Part shown: piece by piece, positions 5,876 through 44,518 of the stretch
How the letters are laid out: each line of letters begins with the position of its first letter
Position numbering within the stretch: the stretch's first letter is position 1
Translations under genes and position numbers: made by a program
Notes under the pieces: generated by a model
Told to the model about the DNA's origin: nothing
The model's database searches: none
The model's input: the letters and a program-made list of their open reading frames with translations, nothing else
Virus record (IMG/VR): IMGVR_UViG_3300021170_000016
Span: 2,320-66,319 of that record
Strand: one strand, 5' to 3'
From: a virus
Length of the DNA: 64,000 bases

Positions 5876-6181
5876 TTATTTCTCCTTTGTCTTCTCGACG
5901 TTCTTGATCATCGAACCGTCCGCACGTCGAGGAAACGATCGGTTCTGGTGCGGCGTCTCGCCGCGTAGATTGCTGGGCTTGTCCGAGCCACCCTTGCTCA
6001 ACGGGGCCTTGTGGTCGTTGTCCTGGCTTTTCTTGATGATACCAAGCTTCAGCGCTGTGCGTCGGTCACGGTGGCGCTTCGCGTTCTCGCTGTCGCTGCC
6101 CGTCCCGCTCTCGCCCCGCGCCTTCTGCGTCGCATACTCGCGCTTGAGGTTGCGCACATAACCTTTGCTGCTGGGCATCAC
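5876..6181 (-). CDS. HNH endonuclease
   Basis: DNDHKAPLSKGG...SNLR...HQNR. Confidence 0.75.
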   Translation of the reverse strand: MMPSSKGYVRNLKREYATQKARGESGTGSDSENAKRHRDRRTALKLGIIKKSQDNDHKAPLSKGGSDKPSNLRGETPHQNRSFPRRADGSMIKNVEKTKEK

Positions 6182-23717: not shown

Positions 23718-25277
23718 GTGTCCGCGCACAACACCATCGACTATAAGCCCGCGCCGACGGTGCGGGACTTCATCGTCGACTACACGCCGGGTAAGCTGTT
23801 CTACGATTGGATCGTGGGTCCGGTCGGTTCGGGCAAGACGACGGGCCTCTTCATGAAGCTCGTCTACATGGCGCAGATGCAAGCGCCGCAGCCCGACGGC
23901 ATCCGGCGCTCGCGCGCAGTCGTCGTGCGCAACACCGCCCCGCAGCTGAACGACACCACACTCACGTCGTGGTTCTATTGGTTCAAGCCGGGGCAGGCTG
24001 GTAGCTGGTCCATCACCAACAAGACGTTCGTGCTGAAGTTCGGCGACGTCGAGTGCGAGGTGCTCTTCCGCCCGCTCGACACCGCTGATGACGTCAACCG
24101 CGTGCTCTCGCTCGAAGTCACCTTCGTGCTTATCGACGAGTTCGTGCAGATACCCAAGGCGATCGTCGACGCGCTCTCTGCCCGTTGCGGACGCTACCCC
24201 GCGAAGAAGGACGGCGGCGCGACCAACTGGGGCATGTGGGGCTCGTCCAATCCGAGCACGGAAGACAACTGGTGGTTCGACCACCTGCATGGCCGATCGG
24301 TGAAGAGGTTCTTCCGGTCGACGGGTAACGCAGACGCCGATCGTATGATCCGCGAGTTCGAGAGGAACCGCGGTGTCGACGGCGCGTTTGCTATCGGCAC
24401 ATTGGACGGTGGCACGGTGACGATCGGCGACGTCAACGAGACATACTTCAAGCAGCCGTCCGCGCTCGGGCCGGATGCGGAGAACATCGAGAACCTTCCC
24501 GGCGAGCGCGGCTATTACGATAGCGTGACGAAGGGGAAATCCGATGAGTGGATCAAGCAGTTCGTCGAGTGCGAGTGGGGCTTCTCCGTCGCGGGCAAGC
24601 CCGTCATCGCTGCCTTCAAGCCGCAGCGTCATATCTCCCACCAGCTGCTGCGATACAACCCCCATCTACCTTTGGTGGCCGGCTTCGATCCTGGTCTTGC
24701 TGGTAGCGCTCTTGTTTTCGGGCAGCAGGACTTTCATGGTCGACTCCTAGTGCTGGGGGAGTTGGTGCAGGAGAACATGGGTTCGGAGAGGATCATCAGT
24801 GAGCGACTCAAGCCATACCTTCGTCGAAGATTCCCCGATGCTCGACTTATCGTTGCCCCTGATCCTGCATCCAACAATCGCGGCCAGCGTGATGAGGTTG
24901 CAGTCATCCAACCCTTCAAAGATAAGTTCGATGTGTCCATTGAATCCAACAACCGACTGCCGTTGCGGGTTGACGCATTGGATCACTTCTGCACCTATCT
25001 CACCGATGTCGGCGAGGCGCTGCTGGTAGACGAGAACATGTGCCCCAACGTCGTGCGCGCGCTCAAGGGCGGCTGGCGCTTCGCAATGGACTCGAAGAAG
25101 GACCAGATCAAAGGCGTTGATCCGGAGAAAAATGCGTGGTCGCATGTGGGCGACGCGACAGGCTATTTGGCGCGCTACTTCCACCGCCAGCAGGTGCGCG
25201 AGTTGCGTTACGGCGTGAAAGGCGGTAGTAGATTCGTTCCGCCGCGCAAATTCGGCCCGAGCTACCATCAGACGTGA
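23718..25277 (+). CDS. terL: terminase large subunit
   Basis: GPVGSGKT, VVRNT, VLIDE, SNP, GFDPG, HVGDA. Confidence 0.93.
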   Translation: MSAHNTIDYKPAPTVRDFIVDYTPGKLFYDWIVGPVGSGKTTGLFMKLVYMAQMQAPQPDGIRRSRAVVVRNTAPQLNDTTLTSWFYWFKPGQAGSWSITNKTFVLKFGDVECEVLFRPLDTADDVNRVLSLEVTFVLIDEFVQIPKAIVDALSARCGRYPAKKDGGATNWGMWGSSNPSTEDNWWFDHLHGRSVKRFFRSTGNADADRMIREFERNRGVDGAFAIGTLDGGTVTIGDVNETYFKQPSALGPDAENIENLPGERGYYDSVTKGKSDEWIKQFVECEWGFSVAGKPVIAAFKPQRHISHQLLRYNPHLPLVAGFDPGLAGSALVFGQQDFHGRLLVLGELVQENMGSERIISERLKPYLRRRFPDARLIVAPDPASNNRGQRDEVAVIQPFKDKFDVSIESNNRLPLRVDALDHFCTYLTDVGEALLVDENMCPNVVRALKGGWRFAMDSKKDQIKGVDPEKNAWSHVGDATGYLARYFHRQQVRELRYGVKGGSRFVPPRKFGPSYHQT

Positions 25278-25285
25278 GCTGACCA

Positions 25286-27535
25286 ATGGTGCCTTCATCG
25301 TCGATCGCCCAGCCTGATCCGAGCCTTGTTCCGCCTGGGGTCGACGTCCCGAATGCCGAGAACGCTCCCGTTCGCAAGCTCGATCCGGTCGAGCTGCAGC
25401 GGCTTGGCTCGAAGCTCGGCCTGCTCTTCACGCAGTATCGCTCCGATCGGCGCTTGGCCGAGCTACGGTGGCTTCGCTGCGAGCGCCAGTATCTCGGCAT
25501 CTATGACCCTGACGTCGACAAGGAGCTGAGCGCGCAGCGCTCGCGGTCATACCCCAAGGTGACGCGCGTCAAGTGTCTCAGCGTGCTCTCCCGTCTTATG
25601 AGCCTCATGTTCCCCGGCAACGAGAGGAACTGGGAGCTGACCGCGTCCCCCTCCATGGACATGAAGATGGAGGACGTGCAGGCGGCCATCAAGCTCGCGC
25701 AGAAGCGTGACGCCGATGCGGGCGATCCGCCGAAGCCGACCGATCTTGACTACGTCTTCACCGCCATCAAGCAGCTCGCGGCGAAGCGCGCCGAAGACCT
25801 CACGGTGATGATCGACGGACAGATGCAGGAGCTGGGCGGACATCAGACGCTCGACTACATCGCGCTCAACCGATCGGTCATCAAGTCCGGCATCGTGTTC
25901 GGCGTCGGCCTCCTCGAAGGTCCCTACGCGATCGAGGCGAAGAAGACAGTGTGGAAGGCAGGCCCCGACGGACAGCCGAAGCCGTCGCAGAAGACCATCT
26001 ACAAGCCATGCTTCGAGTGGGTGCCCATCTGGGATTTCTATCCGGACATGAGCGCCAAGCGCTTCGAGACGATGGACGGCTACTTCGTCCGCAAGGTGAT
26101 GTCGCGCGCGCAGGTGCGCAAGCTCGCCGATCGCCCGGACTTTTTCGAGGACGTCATAACCGGCTTCCTCGAAAAGAACGCGATGGGGAACTGGCGTCCG
26201 CTGGAGTTCGAGACCGAGCTGCGCGCGATGGGCGTCAAGTCCAACACGAATGAGCAGAAGACCGAGACGTCAAAGTATGAGATTCTCGTGTGGCACGGTC
26301 AGCTGTCCGGCCAGATGCTCTACCTCGCCGGCATCGATGTGGAGCCCGCCAAATGGGGCGACGACATGGACGCCGAGGTCTGGATGATCGGCGAGAATGT
26401 GATCAAGGTCACGCTCAATCCGTGGAAAGAACTTGGAGTCGATGTGAAGACGTTGCACTCGTTCGTATTCGACGAGGATGATACAAGCCCGATCGGCCAG
26501 GGGCTCCCTGTCATTATGCGCGACAGCCAGATGGCGATCAGCGCGGCATCGCGTATGCTGCTCGACAACGCGAGCGTCATCTGCGGGCCCAACCTCGAAC
26601 TCAATACCGATCTGCTCCGGCCCGACCAGGACCTCACGAGCATGAGCGCCTACAAGTTTTGGTATCGCGAGGGCACCGGCAACGACGCGTTGCAGCCCGC
26701 GGTGCGCGAGATCGAGGTCAAGTCGCATCTCGACGAGCTGCGTGAGGTGATCCACCTCTACATGGACTTCGCGGACCAGGAGACATTCGTTGGCCCGGCG
26801 ACGGGCGGCGATATGACCAAATCCAACAGCGAGCCGATGCGCACCGCGGCGGGCGCGAGCATGATCCGCGGCGACGCCGCACTACCGTTCAAGGACATCG
26901 TGCGCAGCTTCGACACCTTCACGCAGTCGGTGCTCGACTCGATCGTGCAGTTCAACCGAAAGCTCAACCCCGACGAGACTCCGGAGGCCGACTACGACAT
27001 CATCGCGCGTGGCGCGACGTCCCTTGTCGCGAAAGAGGTGCGCGGGCTCCAAATGGACCAGCTCGCGACGACGCTCCTCGACGAGGAGAAGCGCGAGATT
27101 AACTTCCGCAAGTTCTCGCGAGCCCGCCTCAAGGTCCGGGACATGGACGATCTGCTGGTGAGCGACGAGGAGTCGGATCGTCGTGCGAAGGCGGCCAACG
27201 ATAGCGCCACGCAGCAGCAGGATATGATGCAGAAGACGGCGGAGGCGACGGTTCGCAAGCTGCTCTCGGATGCGTTCAAGAACATCGCGACGGCCCAAAA
27301 GAACATGGCCGGCGCAGATGCCACCAACGTCCAGACCGCCCTCGATCTCTTGGAGCGAGGCATGGCTGGCGCACTCAGCGGAGATCAAAGTGGACAGACG
27401 GGAGCGACTGCGGCGGGAAATCCTCCTCAAGGAGGAGCTGTGGAATCGGCGGGAGGAGTTCCGGCCGGTGGCGGAGCTGCTCCAGCTGCGGGTGGAGTCG
27501 GCCCAGGAGGAGCTGCTGGTGGCGGAGCCGGCTGA
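25286..27535 (+). CDS. portal protein
   Basis: 749 aa after TerL; WDFYPD, RTAAGASM, Gly-rich tail typical of podovirus portals. Confidence 0.85.
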   Translation: MVPSSSIAQPDPSLVPPGVDVPNAENAPVRKLDPVELQRLGSKLGLLFTQYRSDRRLAELRWLRCERQYLGIYDPDVDKELSAQRSRSYPKVTRVKCLSVLSRLMSLMFPGNERNWELTASPSMDMKMEDVQAAIKLAQKRDADAGDPPKPTDLDYVFTAIKQLAAKRAEDLTVMIDGQMQELGGHQTLDYIALNRSVIKSGIVFGVGLLEGPYAIEAKKTVWKAGPDGQPKPSQKTIYKPCFEWVPIWDFYPDMSAKRFETMDGYFVRKVMSRAQVRKLADRPDFFEDVITGFLEKNAMGNWRPLEFETELRAMGVKSNTNEQKTETSKYEILVWHGQLSGQMLYLAGIDVEPAKWGDDMDAEVWMIGENVIKVTLNPWKELGVDVKTLHSFVFDEDDTSPIGQGLPVIMRDSQMAISAASRMLLDNASVICGPNLELNTDLLRPDQDLTSMSAYKFWYREGTGNDALQPAVREIEVKSHLDELREVIHLYMDFADQETFVGPATGGDMTKSNSEPMRTAAGASMIRGDAALPFKDIVRSFDTFTQSVLDSIVQFNRKLNPDETPEADYDIIARGATSLVAKEVRGLQMDQLATTLLDEEKREINFRKFSRARLKVRDMDDLLVSDEESDRRAKAANDSATQQQDMMQKTAEATVRKLLSDAFKNIATAQKNMAGADATNVQTALDLLERGMAGALSGDQSGQTGATAAGNPPQGGAVESAGGVPAGGGAAPAAGGVGPGGAAGGGAG

Positions 27536-34046: not shown

Positions 34047-37000
34047 TTGGCGTTTCCTCCGAGCCCAGATTCGGCGTGGCTCGCCGATCTACCTAAGCTT
34101 GGCGCTCCTCCACCGCCCGCACCGACAGGCTTCTGGGCGAACCCGGTTGTCTCGTCGATCGCGAGCGGCTTCGGCAAGCTCGGTCAATCCGAAGCTGAGT
34201 TCGTGCAAGCGGGTGGCGCTGCGCTTGGCCTCCCTGGTGTGGAGGCTGCAGGCGCGCGTGGTGCGGAGCGCGCTAAGGCCAACACCGCGTTGTTCGCCCG
34301 GCCTGATCTTGAACAGCAGGGTATGCTGAGTTCGCCGTCGTCGTTCATCTATCATCTCGGTCAACAGCTTCCGACCCTGGTTGCGGCCGGCGCGGGTGCT
34401 GAGGCTCTCCCGGCGATCGGTGGTGCTGGTGCTCTCGCGCGCGCCGCGCGTGCTGGTGTGTTCATGCTCCCCTCCGCCGTCGGCGCGAACGTCGAAGAGC
34501 AGCAGGCGCAGACCCCTGGTGAGCTGACGCAGGAGGGTGCGATCAAGGCCATCGCGCTCGGTGCGCCCGAGGCTCTTGCACAAGGCTTCGTTCCCGGCAG
34601 CCTCGAACAGATTTTGGAGAAGGGTGCTGCGGGTCAATGGGCTCATCGCGCATTGGTTGGTGGTGCGTCTCTTGGCGCGTATCAGGGTGTGCAGGCCGGC
34701 GCGACGCGAGCGATCACGGACGCGGCGTATCATCCGGAGATGGGCTTCTCCGATCGCGCGGAGAACGTCGTCAAGGCGGCGCTCGAAGGTGGTATCACCG
34801 GCGCGGTCTTTGGTGGCGCGATCCACGCGGTCTCCGGACAAAAGGTTTCGGTCAATGCTCCGACCGAGGTGATCAATGACGCGACTGCCAAGGTGCTGGA
34901 GCCGACTCAGGATCAGGGCGGTCAGAACCTCAGTAATATGCAGCTACCGGCTCCGCAGCCGCTACTGCAGATCACGGACCAGCGCACGTCGCCCGGCAAC
35001 ATCGGGACACCGACGGAGCGGCCGATCGCAGTCAATACCGCTGGCGAGGCGTCCGCTACTCCGACCGACGTCATGCCCGGCCAGACGATCTTCGGAGGCC
35101 AGGGCGGCGCGTCGACCGATGTGGCTGCAGCGTCGCGCGCCGGAGCGCAGAAGGCTCTACCTGCACCGACGCCTCCTGTCCCTGACGTTGTTGCACCTCT
35201 TGCAGAGACCCCAAGCGAGGACCTCCGCACTCTGCACACTGCGCTCGCCGCGCAGGACACGATGGACACCGCCCAGAGTGGCCAGTTCCAAGAGGTCCGT
35301 GCGGAGTTGGCGAAGCGCACCGTGCCCGGTCTCAAGATCGGCGAAGGGAATCTCTTCACACCCGAGGAGGTCGCAGCGCGCGCACCGCAGGTTGCTGAGG
35401 TCAAGGCCAGTCTCGATCTACCTGAGAAGGCGCAGAACACGCCCTGGTTCAAGAACCTCAACGCTGCGAACGAGCCTGAGCTGATCAACGCGATCGACGC
35501 GGAGCTGAAGTCGCACGATCGCGTCTCGAAGGCGGACGCGACCGCGGACAATCCGATGCGCAAGGCCACCAAGGTCCCTGACTGGCTGCAAGAGCTGGCG
35601 AACGACAAGGGCTTGATGGATGGTAGCAAGCCGTCGTCCCCTGCGGAGAAGCTCGAAGGCTTGACGGAGATCGATAAGCCGCGCGCGCAGGCTGTGGTCG
35701 ACGCCGCGACGAAAGTAGGTGGAGCGCAGCTGCGCGCCGCGAACCGCAAGATGGCCGACATCAACGCGCAGATCGAGCAGTTCACCGCTCTCGATGCGGT
35801 GCATCAGGAGGCCGCGCGTCAGCTCGCCGACGCGAAGACTCCGAAGGACCCGGCGACGGGAACTCCGATCGCGCAGCCGGACCTCACTGTCAAAGCGCGC
35901 CCTGCGCCGACCGGTCTTGATCCAGCGGTGCAGGCGAAGTGGGACGCTGCGGACGCGATCGTGCGCGGGAACAATTCCGACGCTATCAAGAACCAAGCGC
36001 TCGCGCATCAAGCCGCTCTCGAAGCTGGACAGTCGGTGACGAAGCAGACGCTTGCGAAGCTCGGGTCCGATGCGAAGAAGGAAGCCAAGAGCTACTCTGG
36101 TCCGGATCGTTCGATTGTGGAGGATGCAAATGCCGTTCAAGAGCGAAGCGCAGCGCCGGTGGATGCACGAGAACCATCCGGAAATGGCGGCGGAGTGGGA
36201 GGCGGAGACGCCGCCAGGGCCGCTGCCTCACCACGTGCCAAAGACCTCGCCCAAGGCAAAAAAGCCGTCGAAGCCCTTGGGAACAAGTTTGCTGGCGAGG
36301 CAGAGACATCAAAAACGGCTAAGGGGCCAGTAGCTCAAGAGAAGCTCGCGCCGGAGTGGGCGCATGCTACCGCGGACGCGCGCCAGGGTGAGGTCATCTA
36401 CTCCCATCCGGACGGTGAGCATGTTGTGGTCCGTTCTTTCGATGCATGGGGCGAGCCTCAATATCAGATGCATAGTCACACCGGTGTCATCCCCGATGAG
36501 AAGGTGACGCAGGCGTTGGAGAAGGCAATCACGCAGGACAAGTTGCAGGATAAGTTCGAGGCCCAGAAGAACCCCGAAGGTCCGTGGAAGGGAAAGGACG
36601 ACTCCGTCGTCGGGACCACAAACGTTCCGCTTGAGAATGTCGGACTTGTCGGAGACTGGCTACGACAAGTCGGGCTCGGCAATGTCAAGGTCGCCCTCGT
36701 CAATCCGCTCGACGCTCGTGGGGCCGCCGCCACGCGCGAGGGATTGAATGGTGACTATCAGGCTGCGCGTCGCGCCGGTGTCGCCGCGTCGGACGGCAGT
36801 ATGAACAGCTTCGGCCCGAAGCTCAACGACTTCTACATGCACACCGATCCAACTCTGTCGCCCGAGAAGACGATCGATACCCTCGCGCATGAGACTGGGC
36901 ACATCGTGGAGAAGACTGCACTCCTCAACGCATCTCCTGAGACGAAGCGTGCGATTAATGACGCGTATGCGAAATACTATGCGAAGGCCAATGCGCTGCC

Positions 37001-40000
37001 GCTCCAGGAGGCGATCAAGCTCACTCGGCTTCGTTCGGGGACTGCTGACGCGTCCGCGATGACGCCTGAGAAGCAGGCGGAGTTTCGTCAGTATGTCACG
37101 AGCTTCTCCGAGTGGTTCGCTGATAACGTCGCGCGCGAGCTGACCTCGGCGCGCGAGCCTCTCAGCGTCGTTGGGAAGTTCTTCTATAACGTCGCGCAGA
37201 AAGTTCGCCAGCTACTGCAGGTGATGACGGGCAACCACCTTATGCCTGATGAGGGCGTCGCCAAGTTCATGCAGGACCTCCGGGAGAGCGCGCGTCGCAG
37301 CCCCGACATGTGGTCCAACGACGTCACGCGTGGACGCGGCGGCGATCGTATCCCCGCGCCGTCAGCGGAGCAGCTGAAGCAGTCGATCGCGCCGAAGAGC
37401 CCGGAGGAGGCCAACCGTCGTCTCATGGCCTCAGTCAAGAGCCTTGATCCGATCTGGCAGAAAGTTGCAGAGACGGTCCCGACGCTCCCGACTGCACTTC
37501 GCAAGCAGGCGCTCATCGCGCAGAGCTTCACCGGCATCGTGAACATCGCTGGAAAGTATCTTAAGACCGCGCCGGCATATCATGACGGTTTCACGAACCG
37601 TGAGGCTCGCACCGGGATGAAGGACAAAACCGACTCGGTTTCGCACCGCGGGTTCTTGGCCCTGAAGCCCGAGCAGCAGAAGCCCGTCAATAGCATGCTT
37701 GCGAAGCTGAACGCGAACCCTTGGTTCCTCGATCCACGCAAGCCGATCGGTGACTACGCGAAGGTGATCTCGGACAACCCGAAGGACGCCGACGCGATCC
37801 GCGCGCTCCACCGCGAGTTGGTTGGTGACTGGAGCCGACTCCAGCAGGCTAGCCTTCACAAGGTAGTCGAGTCTATCTTGTCGATGAACCAGACGAAGGG
37901 TCTCCAGGCGAACGTCGCCCTCATGCACTCGGCTGTCGAGATGTGGGCTGGCAAGTCCGGTATCAATCTGTTCGGTGATGGTCACATCAACCCAGATGAG
38001 GCGTTCCGCACGCAGCCGACTCTCCACGACGACCCGACGAAGGCCCAGTTGTTCTATGCCGCGGCGCATAGCCGCATGTTGAACGCGATCAAGGACCATG
38101 TCGCCGCGAGCAACGATCCGTTCTTGAAGCCCCTGATGGAGCATGTTCAGGAGTCGAAGGCGCTTATCGACACCGGTATCTACTCGCCGCTGACTCGTGA
38201 GAACTACGATCACTTTGTATCGGGGCGGCTCGCGACCGATGATGCTGGACGTCCCAAGGCTGGCGTGCAGCAAGCACTCAGCGACGCCATGCAGAAGGCC
38301 GACTTCAGTCTTGGTATGTCTTATGACCCGAGCAGTTCGGTGGTCATGACCAAGATCAAAGACCTCGCGACGATGAACCGTCTCCACGGCATGTTCACCG
38401 AGCTGGAGAAGTCTGGGGTCATCGAACCCGGTTCGAGCAAAGCTGGGCACCCGGATGACCCATCGTCGATGGGTAGGATTGGCACGCCGTTCATTCAGCG
38501 GATGATCGAGGGGTTCAAAAGCACGATCGAGAAGTCCAACATCGACGACGCTGCGAAGGATCGGTTGCAGCGCGCGATGGTCGCGCAGCTCATGGACACA
38601 GTCTCCGATCGCTCCACGCTGCCCAGCATGCAGAAGAGGAACTTCACGTCCGGCTTTGACCCTGAGATGGGCAAGGCCGCGGTCATGCGCGCCCTGAACA
38701 GCTCGCGTGCTTCGACCGCGGTCTCATCCCGCAGTGAGATGGCGCGTCTCGCTCAGGCGATGATCGATGAGACGAACGCTGTGAAGGGCGATCAGACAAT
38801 GAAGCCATCGGAGCGTGAGATCGGTTCGGATGCGCTGCGCGAAATCCTGCGCCGTGAGGCCGAGCAGGCGTGGCACATCCCGCACAGCTTCATCGATACG
38901 ATCAAGTCCGGCATGCATACAATCATGGTGGGCCTCAACCCGGCCTATACTCTCACAGCGATGTCCCAGGTCCCGACACTACTTCACCCCGAGTTGGCGA
39001 AGCAGTTCGGCTATGGCAAGTCCGCGGTCGCGATCGGCAAGGCAACTGGTCGCGCGTTCAATATCATGCGCGCTGTCTTCAACAGCCCCGATGGATGGAA
39101 TGTCGGCTTCCGCGAGGACGCACTTCGCAAGGCTGGTATCTCGGAGCGCGACATCCAGACGGTGATGAAGCTAGAGAACGCCGGTAAGATGACGAGCTTC
39201 ACTCAGGCGATGTCAGAGCTTGGAGAAGGTTCATCGCCGGGCCGCCAGATGTATAAGAACATCTCGAACGCGATGGGTGTCTACGCGGAGCAGCTACCGC
39301 GTGTCATCGCCGCGTTGACCGCTGGCGACCTCTACGCGAAGCGTCCGATCGCTGGCAAGACGCGCGATGAGTATGTCAGCGAAGTCGTGAGCAACTCCCA
39401 ATTCAACTGGGGTCCTGGCGAAGCCTCGCGCCTGACGAGCAAGCGTGGCCCGCTCGGTGCAGCGACGCAAATTTCGCTCGCGTTCATGCAGTATCAGACG
39501 AACATGGTGCAGAAGCTCTACACCGAGATGCACGCGGCGTTCGGTAAGGACGGCCCGCAGGCACAAAAGGAGGCCGGCAAGTTCCTCGCTGCGCATATGG
39601 TCAATGTGATCGCCATCGCCGGCACGCTCGGCCTCCCTGGCGCGGCGTTCGTCGCTGGTGCGTTCGACAAAATCTACCAGCAGCTGACGGGCCGCGACGA
39701 TATGGACATCCAGGGTCTGTATCGCACCTACCTCGCTCATACGTTCGGTGCGGATGTCGCAGATGTCATCGCGAAGGGGCTCCCGCGTGCGGCCGGTCTT
39801 GATCTCTCGAAACTCGGGGACGCGAACCTCATCCCCGGCACCGGGTTCATGACCGATAAGCGTAAGTGGGAGGACGCGTCGAAGGACTGGCTGAAGTCGA
39901 TGGCCGGTGCAGGTGGCAGCGAGGCGGGCAACCTCATCCTCGCGTCGCGCGATCTGATGAACGGCGATTACATGATGGCCGCTACGAAGTTCCTTCCAGA

Positions 40001-40454
40001 GGGCGCGAAGGGTTTGGCTGAAGGTGCCTACTACTCGATGCATGGATACGTCGACAAGGACGGTGTCCCGCTCCCGATCGGTTCTCCGTCGGCGCTCGAT
40101 ATCGTCTACGCGACGCTCGGGTTCGATCCTGCGCGTCTCGCGCAGTATCAGGAGGCGAAGCGCATCAGTGGTGGTCTCGAAGCCCAGCGTGAGTTCCGCT
40201 CGCAGAACATCACCCAGCATCTCGTCAAAGCGCAGATGACGGGCGACTCGTCCGCGCTCGGCTCGTGGCTCAATGCTGCAGCAGAGTTCACGACCGAACA
40301 TCCAGGTATGCCGAGCCCGCTGACGAGCATCGGGACGAACTTCACCGAGCACGCGCGCCAGGGTATTCTCGCCAAGGCGCTCGGTGCGCCGCTCGGTGTT
40401 GGTGTCCTCGATCCCAACCGTTCTGCGACGGGCTTCTTGAGCACGCCTCAATGA
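34047..40454 (+). CDS. giant internal virion/DNA-ejection protein with a zincin-like motif
   Basis: 2135 aa, GAGGAG RBS, LAHETGH...SEWFAD, helical C-terminus. Confidence 0.75.
36130..36333 (+). CDS. nested +1-frame gene ([28 protein letters not shown]...)
   Basis: GGAGG RBS; resembles a recurring small phage protein type. Confidence 0.65.
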   Translation: MPFKSEAQRRWMHENHPEMAAEWEAETPPGPLPHHVPKTSPKAKKPSKPLGTSLLARQRHQKRLRGQ

Positions 40455-41404
40455 GCCCGCCCGACTTCACATTCGGCGGAGGTCCCAACCAGCCAACTCG
40501 CCCGCCAATTCCGAGCACGCAGGCACCACCAGGACAAATCGGCAGCCCTGGGTTCGGAGTAGGCTTTGGCGGTGGACCTATCGGCGGAGATGTATCTGGC
40601 GCGGTGCGTCCTACCAACGCGAGCGGAGGTCCTAATTGGATGGGGCCTCCTGGGCCTCCAGGACCCCCAGGTCCTCAAGGCCCATCAGGTGGCGGACCTA
40701 CCGGACCAACAGGAGCACAAGGAAATGCAGGACCAACAGGACCCATTGGTGCAGCCGGCTCAGCTGGGCCCACAGGACCTACCGGCCCTACGGGCGCGAA
40801 CGGAAGCGCTGGAAGCGCTGGTCCGACTGGGCCAACTGGACCCACCGGCGCTGGCGGTGCTGCTGGGTCTCAAGGGCCCACAGGACCTACCGGGCCTCAG
40901 GGATCGGTTGGCAGCGGTGGGCCAACTGGTCCGACAGGCTCCACCGGTGCAGGAGGTCCCACCGGTCCTACCGGCACCACCGGCGCAGGCGGCCCCACCG
41001 GACCAACAGGAAGTAGCGGAGTAGCTGGGCCTACCGGCCCGACGGGCTCCACAGGTGCGGGCGGACCTACCGGCCCGACAGGCTCCACAGGTGCGGGCGG
41101 ACCTACCGGCCCGACGGGCTCCACAGGTGCGGGCGGACCTACCGGCCCGACGGGCTCCATAGGTGCAACCGGTCCAACCGGCGCGACGGGTGCAACCGGT
41201 CCAACCGGAGCGACAGGACCTACTGGCGCAACGGGGCCCACCGGCTCGACGGGCCCCACCGGAGCTGTTACAAGACCGAGGACCGCGCGGATTGTGAACC
41301 CGCAAGATTTCAATCCCGGCGACAACTTCACACTCGCCGCTTGGACCGTCGGCACTCCCGCCGCCGTTGATCTGTATCAGCATGCAGCTCTAGGAGGGTT
41401 GTGA
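40451..41404 (+). CDS. collagen-like (GPT) fibre protein
   Basis: long Gly-X-Y tract. Confidence 0.85.
41025..41160 (+). repeat. 36-bp tandem repeat, about 3.5 copies ([12 protein letters not shown])
   Basis: GGACCTACCGGCCCGACGGGCTCCACAGGTGCGGGC units. Confidence 0.8.

Positions 41405-42838: not shown

Positions 42839-44514
<1,676 letters not shown>

Positions 44515-44518
<4 letters not shown>

Follow-up and report, generated by a model that had tools for sequence, protein, structure and literature searches.

Can the DNA of a giant phage virion gene carry, in a second reading frame, the complete gene of another protein? The question is raised by the IMG/VR virus record IMGVR_UViG_3300021170_000016, a viral record of 66,319 bp rated complete by CheckV, of which a stretch of 64 kb (positions 2,320 to 66,319 of the record; hereafter the window, whose own numbering is used throughout) was analyzed. 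In the window, an open reading frame (ORF) of 2135 codons in the virion structural module (34047-40454, plus strand) encloses the whole of a 67-codon ORF (36130-36333, plus strand), which is read one base ahead of it, that is, in the +1 frame. Embedded genes as such are textbook matter in phages, Rz/Rz1 being the familiar case. A first-pass annotation, made from the letters of the window alone, had described the small ORF as a complete gene nested in the +1 frame of the 2135-residue virion gene, and its coordinates, its stop and its product of 67 amino acids (aa) are confirmed here from the sequence. We conclude that the nested ORF is, with a probability of about 0.8, a genuine and separately translated gene, translation being inferred from comparisons of sequences. 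These comparisons concern the family to which the product belongs, the recurrence of the nested layout, and the distribution of changes between the two frames.

Results

The nested ORF and its start site

The small ORF starts at ATG 36130 and stops at TAG 36331-36333. A Shine-Dalgarno (SD)-like motif, GGAGG, lies at 36119-36123 (plus strand), 6 nucleotides (nt) upstream of the ATG, and is the motif that had been taken for the ribosome-binding site. A second in-frame ATG is found at 36124; it is an unlikely start codon because it adjoins the SD motif directly, and it is also off the start that is usual in the family. With its own SD motif and start codon, and lying as a whole inside a longer ORF of the same strand, the small ORF has the makeup of an embedded out-of-frame phage gene. 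Its product contains 13 Lys and Arg versus 6 Asp and Glu among 67 aa, and no Cys. No sigma-70-type promoter was found within the giant gene in the region scanned (35600-36800), and therefore the small ORF, if translated, would be read from the giant gene's own mRNA. A search of sequencing runs found the stretch in one DNA run only, a soil metagenome that is probably its source, and no RNA run was listed.

An alternative-frame ORF of 67 codons is in itself not beyond chance at the G+C (GC) content of the window (62%), and 18 ORFs of at least 30 aa occur in 1.5 kb. The homology of its product is beyond chance, because the peptide has a best stand-alone homolog at an E value of 4.3e-13 (75% identity) among 5.8 billion proteins, and because the family profile matches it in the record at an E value of 9.2e-26 (87 bits, model positions 1-49), which places it within the family. 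The expectation that gene callers would miss such a gene also held: the window peptide has no entry of 100% identity in the protein collection, and the portal protein of the window is present there (P0265).

A large family of small proteins that begin with MPFKS

Altogether, 27 stand-alone homologs of 41-93 aa were retrieved with the window peptide. The family profile was built from an alignment of 28 family sequences (A1), which has 12 invariant columns; M1-P2-F3-K4-S5 is invariant, and the conserved core opens at the initiator Met. Searched against 1.84 billion cluster representatives, the profile matched 4210 at E<=1e-3 and 750 at E<=1e-10, and at least 502 viral contigs encode a relative. 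The first-pass annotation had taken the pattern for that of a recurring stand-alone small phage protein, and these counts agree with it.

In the window copy, the N-terminal core (MPFKS... TP..LP) occupies codons 1-36 (36130-36237, plus strand) and is predicted by AlphaFold2 to fold into a helical hairpin spanning residues 6-26, with helices at 6-15 and 17-26 and a predicted local distance difference test score of 84-92 over residues 1-30. The core is followed by a basic tail rich in Pro, Lys and Arg (codons 37-67; 36238-36330, plus strand), which is predicted with low confidence and contains a weakly predicted helix at residues 54-65. Basic tails of this kind are shared by nested and free members, and the tail of the window copy resembles that of a relative at locus L083. 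Being short and having a Lys/Arg/Pro-rich tail, the 67-aa product also agrees in its overall makeup with the family.

The position of the core within proteins is highly restricted. Of the 150 best representatives, 140 are matched by the profile from residue 1-3 onward and the other ten from 9-38 residues in. The core is also N-terminal in most of 95 longer proteins (170-1282 aa), and thus heads, almost always, either basic proteins of 40-100 aa or longer proteins. The main exception to the N-terminal rule is P0060 (1029 aa), in which the hairpin is internal and in frame at residue 482; its N-terminus has a weak, sub-threshold match to LigD phosphoesterase, and the gene may be fused or mis-called. 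A Pfam scan of 127 long forms gave few matches, with DUF5661 in seven and InPase in four. Single long forms carry SNF2 helicase, HU, GNAT, lysozyme, SET, NUDIX, cupin, DUF6782 metallopeptidase, DUF6321 and DUF6582 domains.

In the ESM Atlas, the neighbors of the peptide are unnamed viral clusters, and the nearest cluster that bears a Pfam name is DUF3008 (PF11450; feature score 0.81), which serves as a lead only. DUF3008 also has a similar KS.AQ..R start. Its identity with the present family was rejected, as hmmscan against Pfam gave no DUF3008 match for the window peptide at E<=10 or for the 28 members at E<=1; no paper on DUF3008 was found.

Among cultured phages, tblastn with three family peptides found free copies in seven records of FlowerPower-like Streptomyces phages and no nested copy, the sensitivity of such a search being limited for so short a query. 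Gene 48 of Streptomyces phage FlowerPower, a cultured member, has the same N-terminal core and basic tail as the window copy; unlike the latter, it is free-standing, flanked by a small "peptidase" gene on one side and by the holin gene on the other. In Phage C75C1 (L204, OQ984151.1), a family match is located at 6001-6069, in an unannotated 64-nt gap between two small coding sequences. This record also has a giant coding sequence across its origin, and the match may be an unannotated or degraded copy.

Recurrence of the nested layout

The 80 best of the at least 502 viral loci were classified with the profile. The small gene was found nested in an ORF of at least 1000 aa (a giant) in 22 loci, all distinct, and nested in an ORF of 300-999 aa in eight (five distinct). 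In a further 11 (ten distinct), an ORF of at least 1000 aa ends first, and the small gene starts no more than 20 nt past its stop. In-frame long forms account for nine loci (six distinct) and other free copies for 29 (25 distinct); one locus, counted as one distinct copy, has no ATG. All nested copies, including 22 of 22 in giants and those of the 300-999-aa class, share the relative frame of the window copy (+1), and none of the classified loci has the hairpin within a giant in the giant's own frame. In complete giant ORFs, the nested copy sits at 22-38% of the length. The GC content of genomes with nested copies in giants ranges from 33% to 64%, and this is also the range covered by all distinct nested copies, which, with the window counted, number about 31. 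Most of the copies with a mid or high GC content have an SD-like motif ahead of the nested ORF.

The giants of the nested type and those that are followed by the small gene just after their stop are homologous over their C-terminal halves, for up to ~1200 residues. Giants of one and the same kind can therefore have the small gene in either of two places. One 228-aa module, 75% identical between two loci, is found on either side of the small gene: it comprises residues 623-850 of the L057 giant, where it ends at the nested gene, and residues 2-228 of the L030 giant, where the nested gene immediately precedes it. In a low-GC marine group (L048, 9871-11076; L044, L074, L076 and L079), the small gene is +1-nested at residue 50-65 of an ORF of ~400 aa, which is the next gene after that of the portal and is without a match in PHROG. 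A scaffold gene would be expected at this position.

The overlap in close relatives

The giant most closely related to that of the window, in L083/L084, is 36% identical to it overall and 51% in the centre. It contains a nested ORF of 71 codons, preceded by AGGAGG, in which an additional residue follows Pro2. In the portal group (80 loci, portal 51-76% identical), the small gene is present in 12 loci, which represent nine distinct peptides. All of these copies are nested in the same frame, eight of the distinct ones at giant residue 560-666 and one at residue 303, and a clear SD-like motif lies ahead of seven of the nine. In the giants of this group (L124-L203), an N-terminal domain of 250-450 aa and the C-terminal parts are conserved, and the middle, approximately residues 300-900, is highly variable; it is there that the nested gene sits when present. 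No pair of giants with and without the nested gene was found that is close enough to define clean insertion boundaries.

Both frames are open in diverged relatives, namely in 22 of the 80 classified loci and in the nine distinct portal-group copies. The first-pass annotation had named two outcomes that would speak against a gene, a lack of homologs and disruption of the frame in close relatives. Neither was encountered, the nested ORF being intact, and in the same frame, in L083/L084 and in eight further distinct members of the portal group.

Selection acts mainly on the small frame

Over the whole giant gene, the GC fractions of the three codon positions are 0.65/0.47/0.74, which is also the coding signature of the genome. 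In the overlap, the giant frame has 0.75/0.60/0.50 and the small frame 0.61/0.51/0.76. The stretch in which the giant frame loses third-position GC (GC3 below 0.58 in 50-codon windows) extends over 36057-36326 (plus strand). The 2135 codons contain no other sustained dip, and a single further 50-codon window, isolated and starting at 34557, also falls this low. The giant-frame peptide across the overlap is rich in Gly, Ala and Ser, and the earlier description of the host frame as a low-complexity linker with atypical codons is borne out by this composition together with the GC3 dip.

The use of codons also differs between nested and free copies. Phe3 is encoded by TTC in 20 of 20 distinct nested copies, where TTT would create a TAA in the giant frame; among 30 free copies, TTT is used in 18 and TTC in 12. 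A stop closes the other frame within 28 codons in 25 of these 30 free copies. Column entropy per small-frame codon position is 0.60/0.40/0.92 in nested copies and 0.61/0.45/1.30 in free ones, and it follows from the nested values that the giant's wobble position is the least variable. Twelve nested pairs (721 codons in total) have 173/142/249 nucleotide differences by small-frame position, and in every one of the 12, amino acid changes are fewer in the small frame than in the giant one, although the pairs are not independent, as some loci recur. In the 120 codons downstream, alignable pairs show an ordinary giant-frame pattern (27/27/61, 28/25/62 and 5/4/16). Thus, selection in the overlap acts mainly on the small frame, and both frames are kept open.

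These data bear on the possibility that the +1 ORF is a fossil of fusion, in which a free gene was swallowed by the giant and persists as an untranslated relic that has not yet decayed. Plausible precursors of such a relic exist in the free-standing and just-after-stop layouts, and the pair formed by the window and L083 has no clear frame asymmetry (29 versus 31 amino acid differences in 66 codons). However, a relic is hard to reconcile with about 31 distinct nested copies that are intact from 33% to 64% GC, with the smaller number of small-frame amino acid changes in every one of the 12 pairs, with a giant wobble position that is the most constrained, or with the retention of SD-like motifs in most mid- and high-GC copies. 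We consider this origin of the pattern improbable.

Another possibility is offered by a dnaX-type heptamer, A_AAA_AAG, located in the small frame at 36258-36264 (plus strand). Ribosomes that start at 36130 and slip by -1 at this site would produce the C-terminal two-thirds of the giant tagged with the hairpin. The heptamer of the window is in the right phase, a -1 slip would indeed rejoin the giant frame, and long proteins with an in-frame N-terminal hairpin do exist. However, a canonical heptamer (X_XXY_YYZ in phase) occurs in only three of 25 nested ORFs, at no conserved place, two of the three being located within the core. Moreover, the two longest in-frame forms, L002 (1152 aa) and L062 (1393 aa), have no BLAST match at 1e-4 to the C-terminal parts of the giants, so an origin of the long forms as tagged C-terminal parts found no support. 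A programmed frameshift cassette at 36258-36264 is, in our judgment, very unlikely. Scarcely credible, too, is a chance ORF, or an element that is conserved as DNA or RNA (a recombination junction or a structured RNA) and not as a protein, for although alternative-frame ORFs are common at 62% GC and the element lies at module junctions, with the 228-aa module before it in L057 and after it in L030, variation is concentrated at the third codon position of the small frame, the peptide is conserved from 33% to 64% GC, most free copies (25 of 30) are closed in the other frame, and the E values are 4.3e-13 and 9.2e-26.

Several observations nonetheless weigh against a genuine gene in the overlap. 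Of the portal-group loci, 22 extend as far as an ORF of at least 900 aa, and 12 of these lack the small gene (one of the 12, L188, is doubtful, its long ORF lying upstream of the portal), which is therefore accessory or dispensable. Dispensability is also suggested by the loci that share the central module of the giant, 39 of 41 of which have no copy within 3 kb. There is no obvious SD motif at the low-GC marine nested copies, and the window/L083 pair, taken alone, shows the balance of changes noted above. Finally, a single old capture spread by recombination is indistinguishable from repeated captures; as the nested copies are, in addition, all in one frame, they do not count as independent trials.

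The giant gene and its modules

Upstream of the giant gene lie the genes of the large terminase (23718-25277) and of a portal-like protein (25286-27535), for which no PDB sequence match was obtained; downstream is a collagen-repeat tail fibre gene (42839-44518). A 379-codon ORF with a GTG start (40265-41404, plus strand), taken from the ORF-finder list, overlaps the last 190 nt of the giant.

The C-terminal PLxRFG domain of the giant, residues 1485-2089 (38499-40313, plus strand), scores 173.7 bits against NCBIfam NF032893, for which the curated cut-off is 100, and is also matched by phrog_11358 (E value of 7e-25). By tblastn, the same region matches the C-terminal parts of F116-like, Atu_ph08 and PEp14 giant proteins, which are variously annotated as DarB-like, helicase, methylase or structural.

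The central module, residues 769-1093 (36351-37325, plus strand), begins 18 nt past the nested stop, contains the motif HETGH at 36888-36902, and is common to 41 viral loci. The alignments of these loci start at giant residue 765-769, with one at residue 810. The module is ~325 aa in length, and the giant sequence on either side of it could be aligned barely or not at all in the six relatives compared. No match to the module was found in Pfam, PHROG or PDB sequences. Five complete genomes that carry it have no homolog of the window's portal, and therefore belong to distant phages; at E<=0.01, no MPFKS ORF occurs anywhere in them. With its HExxH motif, the module looks like a shuffled metallopeptidase-like cassette. 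A fixed pairing of the small gene with this module was considered and rejected on the 39 module loci that have no MPFKS ORF nearby.

Discussion

Proposed origin and expression of the nested gene

The observations are best explained by a small gene that was captured by a larger one and has been maintained there. Ribosomes on the giant virion gene's mRNA would be directed by GGAGG to ATG 36130 and would translate 67 codons in the +1 frame, so that a separate basic protein of 7.6 kDa is released. In the giant protein, this stretch of DNA would become a flexible linker that connects the variable N-terminal part with the central HExxH module. The small gene would have been captured at a junction of giant-gene modules, likely as a neighboring gene at the time when the modules fused, and selection would then have kept both frames open. 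The small gene behaves as a mark of module junctions, around which modules appear to have been rearranged. That the family is free-standing elsewhere and that the periodicity follows the small frame indicate that the small frame is probably the older reading. The first-pass suggestion of a real gene absorbed into, or overprinted within, the giant ORF fits these features, as well as the closure of the other frame in free copies and the substitutions, which follow the small frame.

Comparison with known systems

Embedded spanin genes (lambda Rz/Rz1 and T7 18.5/18.7; PMC6139136) likewise consist of a small gene inside a larger gene of the same strand, in another frame and with its own start. According to the same source, spanin pairs also occur in a "separated" form, the counterpart of which is here the small gene just after the giant's stop; loss of a stop codon in the upstream gene is one possible route to spanin embedding; and automated annotation often fails to identify spanin genes (PMC6139136). 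A spanin identity (o-spanin, Rz1) was rejected for the window's gene, as its product has no lipoprotein signal and no Cys and as the gene lies in a structural module and not in a lysis cassette. Further differences from spanins are the host, a virion gene of 2135 codons in which the overlap is read as a linker; the place of the overlap, about one-third into the host and not near its end; and the family of the small gene, which is much larger and mostly free-standing.

The host ORF itself is comparable to the polyvalent or DarB-like giants with a PLxRFG C-terminus (Iyer et al. 2017, PMC5512222; NF032893), being likewise giant, composed of multiple modules and located in a structural operon. InPase, lysozyme and SNF2 domains are named in polyvalent proteins in that paper, and the long forms described here carry them too, along with other enzyme domains. 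The words "overlapping", "frameshift" and "linker" are absent from its main text, the supplementary domain tables lying outside this check (PMC5512222). The small peptide matches no Pfam family, LPD families included. In the literature, no description was found of the MPFKS family or of nested genes in giant polyvalent genes.

Possible functions of the small protein

Short terminal peptides that are shared by otherwise unrelated cargo, some of it small and basic, are known from the capsid-targeting sequences of T4 internal proteins and from the cargo-loading peptides of encapsulins. The T4 capsid-targeting signal is ~10 residues long and is cleaved. The likeness to the MPFKS hairpin is by analogy only, no sequence relation being claimed. 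We tentatively suggest, as a guess, that the hairpin may be a docking module that requires a free N-terminus and that is found on accessory proteins which reside inside the head or are ejected from it; the window protein, with its hairpin and basic tail, would be the minimal form of such cargo. This suggestion is favored because of the genomic context, the domains of the long forms, and the fact that, among the loci classified, no giant carries the hairpin in frame. The gene adjoins portal genes of four PHROG families or sits in or after giant virion genes, and in one marine group it is inside the ORF that follows the portal. Most domain types of the long forms appear in the repertoire of polyvalent proteins (PMC5512222).

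Other results count against docking, or give it no help. No Pfam or NCBIfam family was found for the window peptide and no Pfam family for the 28 members (E<=1); 11 of the 28 members match phrog_1375, a family of unknown function, weakly (best E value of 5e-5); and Foldseek retrieved no structural match from the PDB at E<=0.001. In addition, the core is far more conserved than the adjoining portals or giants, and this conservation fits a conserved host or nucleic acid target at least as well as docking to the virion. A prediction of the complex between the portal-like protein of the window (A3) and the small protein (A1) gave a score of 0.00 against a mark of 0.32, and speaks neither way.

The gene may thus be real and its product nevertheless not a docking tag. 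As a host-directed or DNA-binding accessory effector, serving for example in counter-defence or host take-over, the protein would use its hairpin to bind a conserved host component or nucleic acid. The gene is accessory in the portal group, as 12 of 22 informative loci are without it, and it sits in the variable, module-shuffled part of the giant; the core is strongly conserved across phages whose portals fall into four PHROG families; the tail is basic; and those long forms that match Pfam carry enzyme and DNA-binding domains. All of this would suit an effector. On the other hand, no homology to characterized effectors was detected, and a placement beside portal or internal-virion genes is equally expected for packaged proteins. 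An effector of this kind appears about as likely as a docking module, and the two overlap, since an ejected effector may need both properties.

A wider extension of the docking suggestion is conceivable, although we regard it as doubtful. The MPFKS hairpin might serve widely as an address tag, functional only where the N-terminus is free, by which accessory cargo is loaded into heads or sent out with the DNA. The giants would for that reason keep it only as an out-of-frame mini-gene at module junctions, and never in frame. Hidden +1 genes in linkers might then be regular in the giant genes of phages and conjugative elements, the coding content of which would be systematically under-annotated.

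Significance

The locus provides a well-supported case in which one stretch of DNA encodes two proteins, kept in about 31 distinct phage genes, and the nested gene is one that standard gene callers drop. It also exposes a large family of small proteins (4210 clusters) that is without a Pfam entry, and that appears to be an obligate module at the N-terminus of many phage proteins, enzyme domains being present in some of these. In uncultured phages, the giant "polyvalent" virion genes are mosaics, and further genes can be hidden in their linkers. If the hairpin is indeed a packaging or ejection tag, it would provide a handle on how accessory proteins enter phage heads, and possibly a tool for cargo loading.

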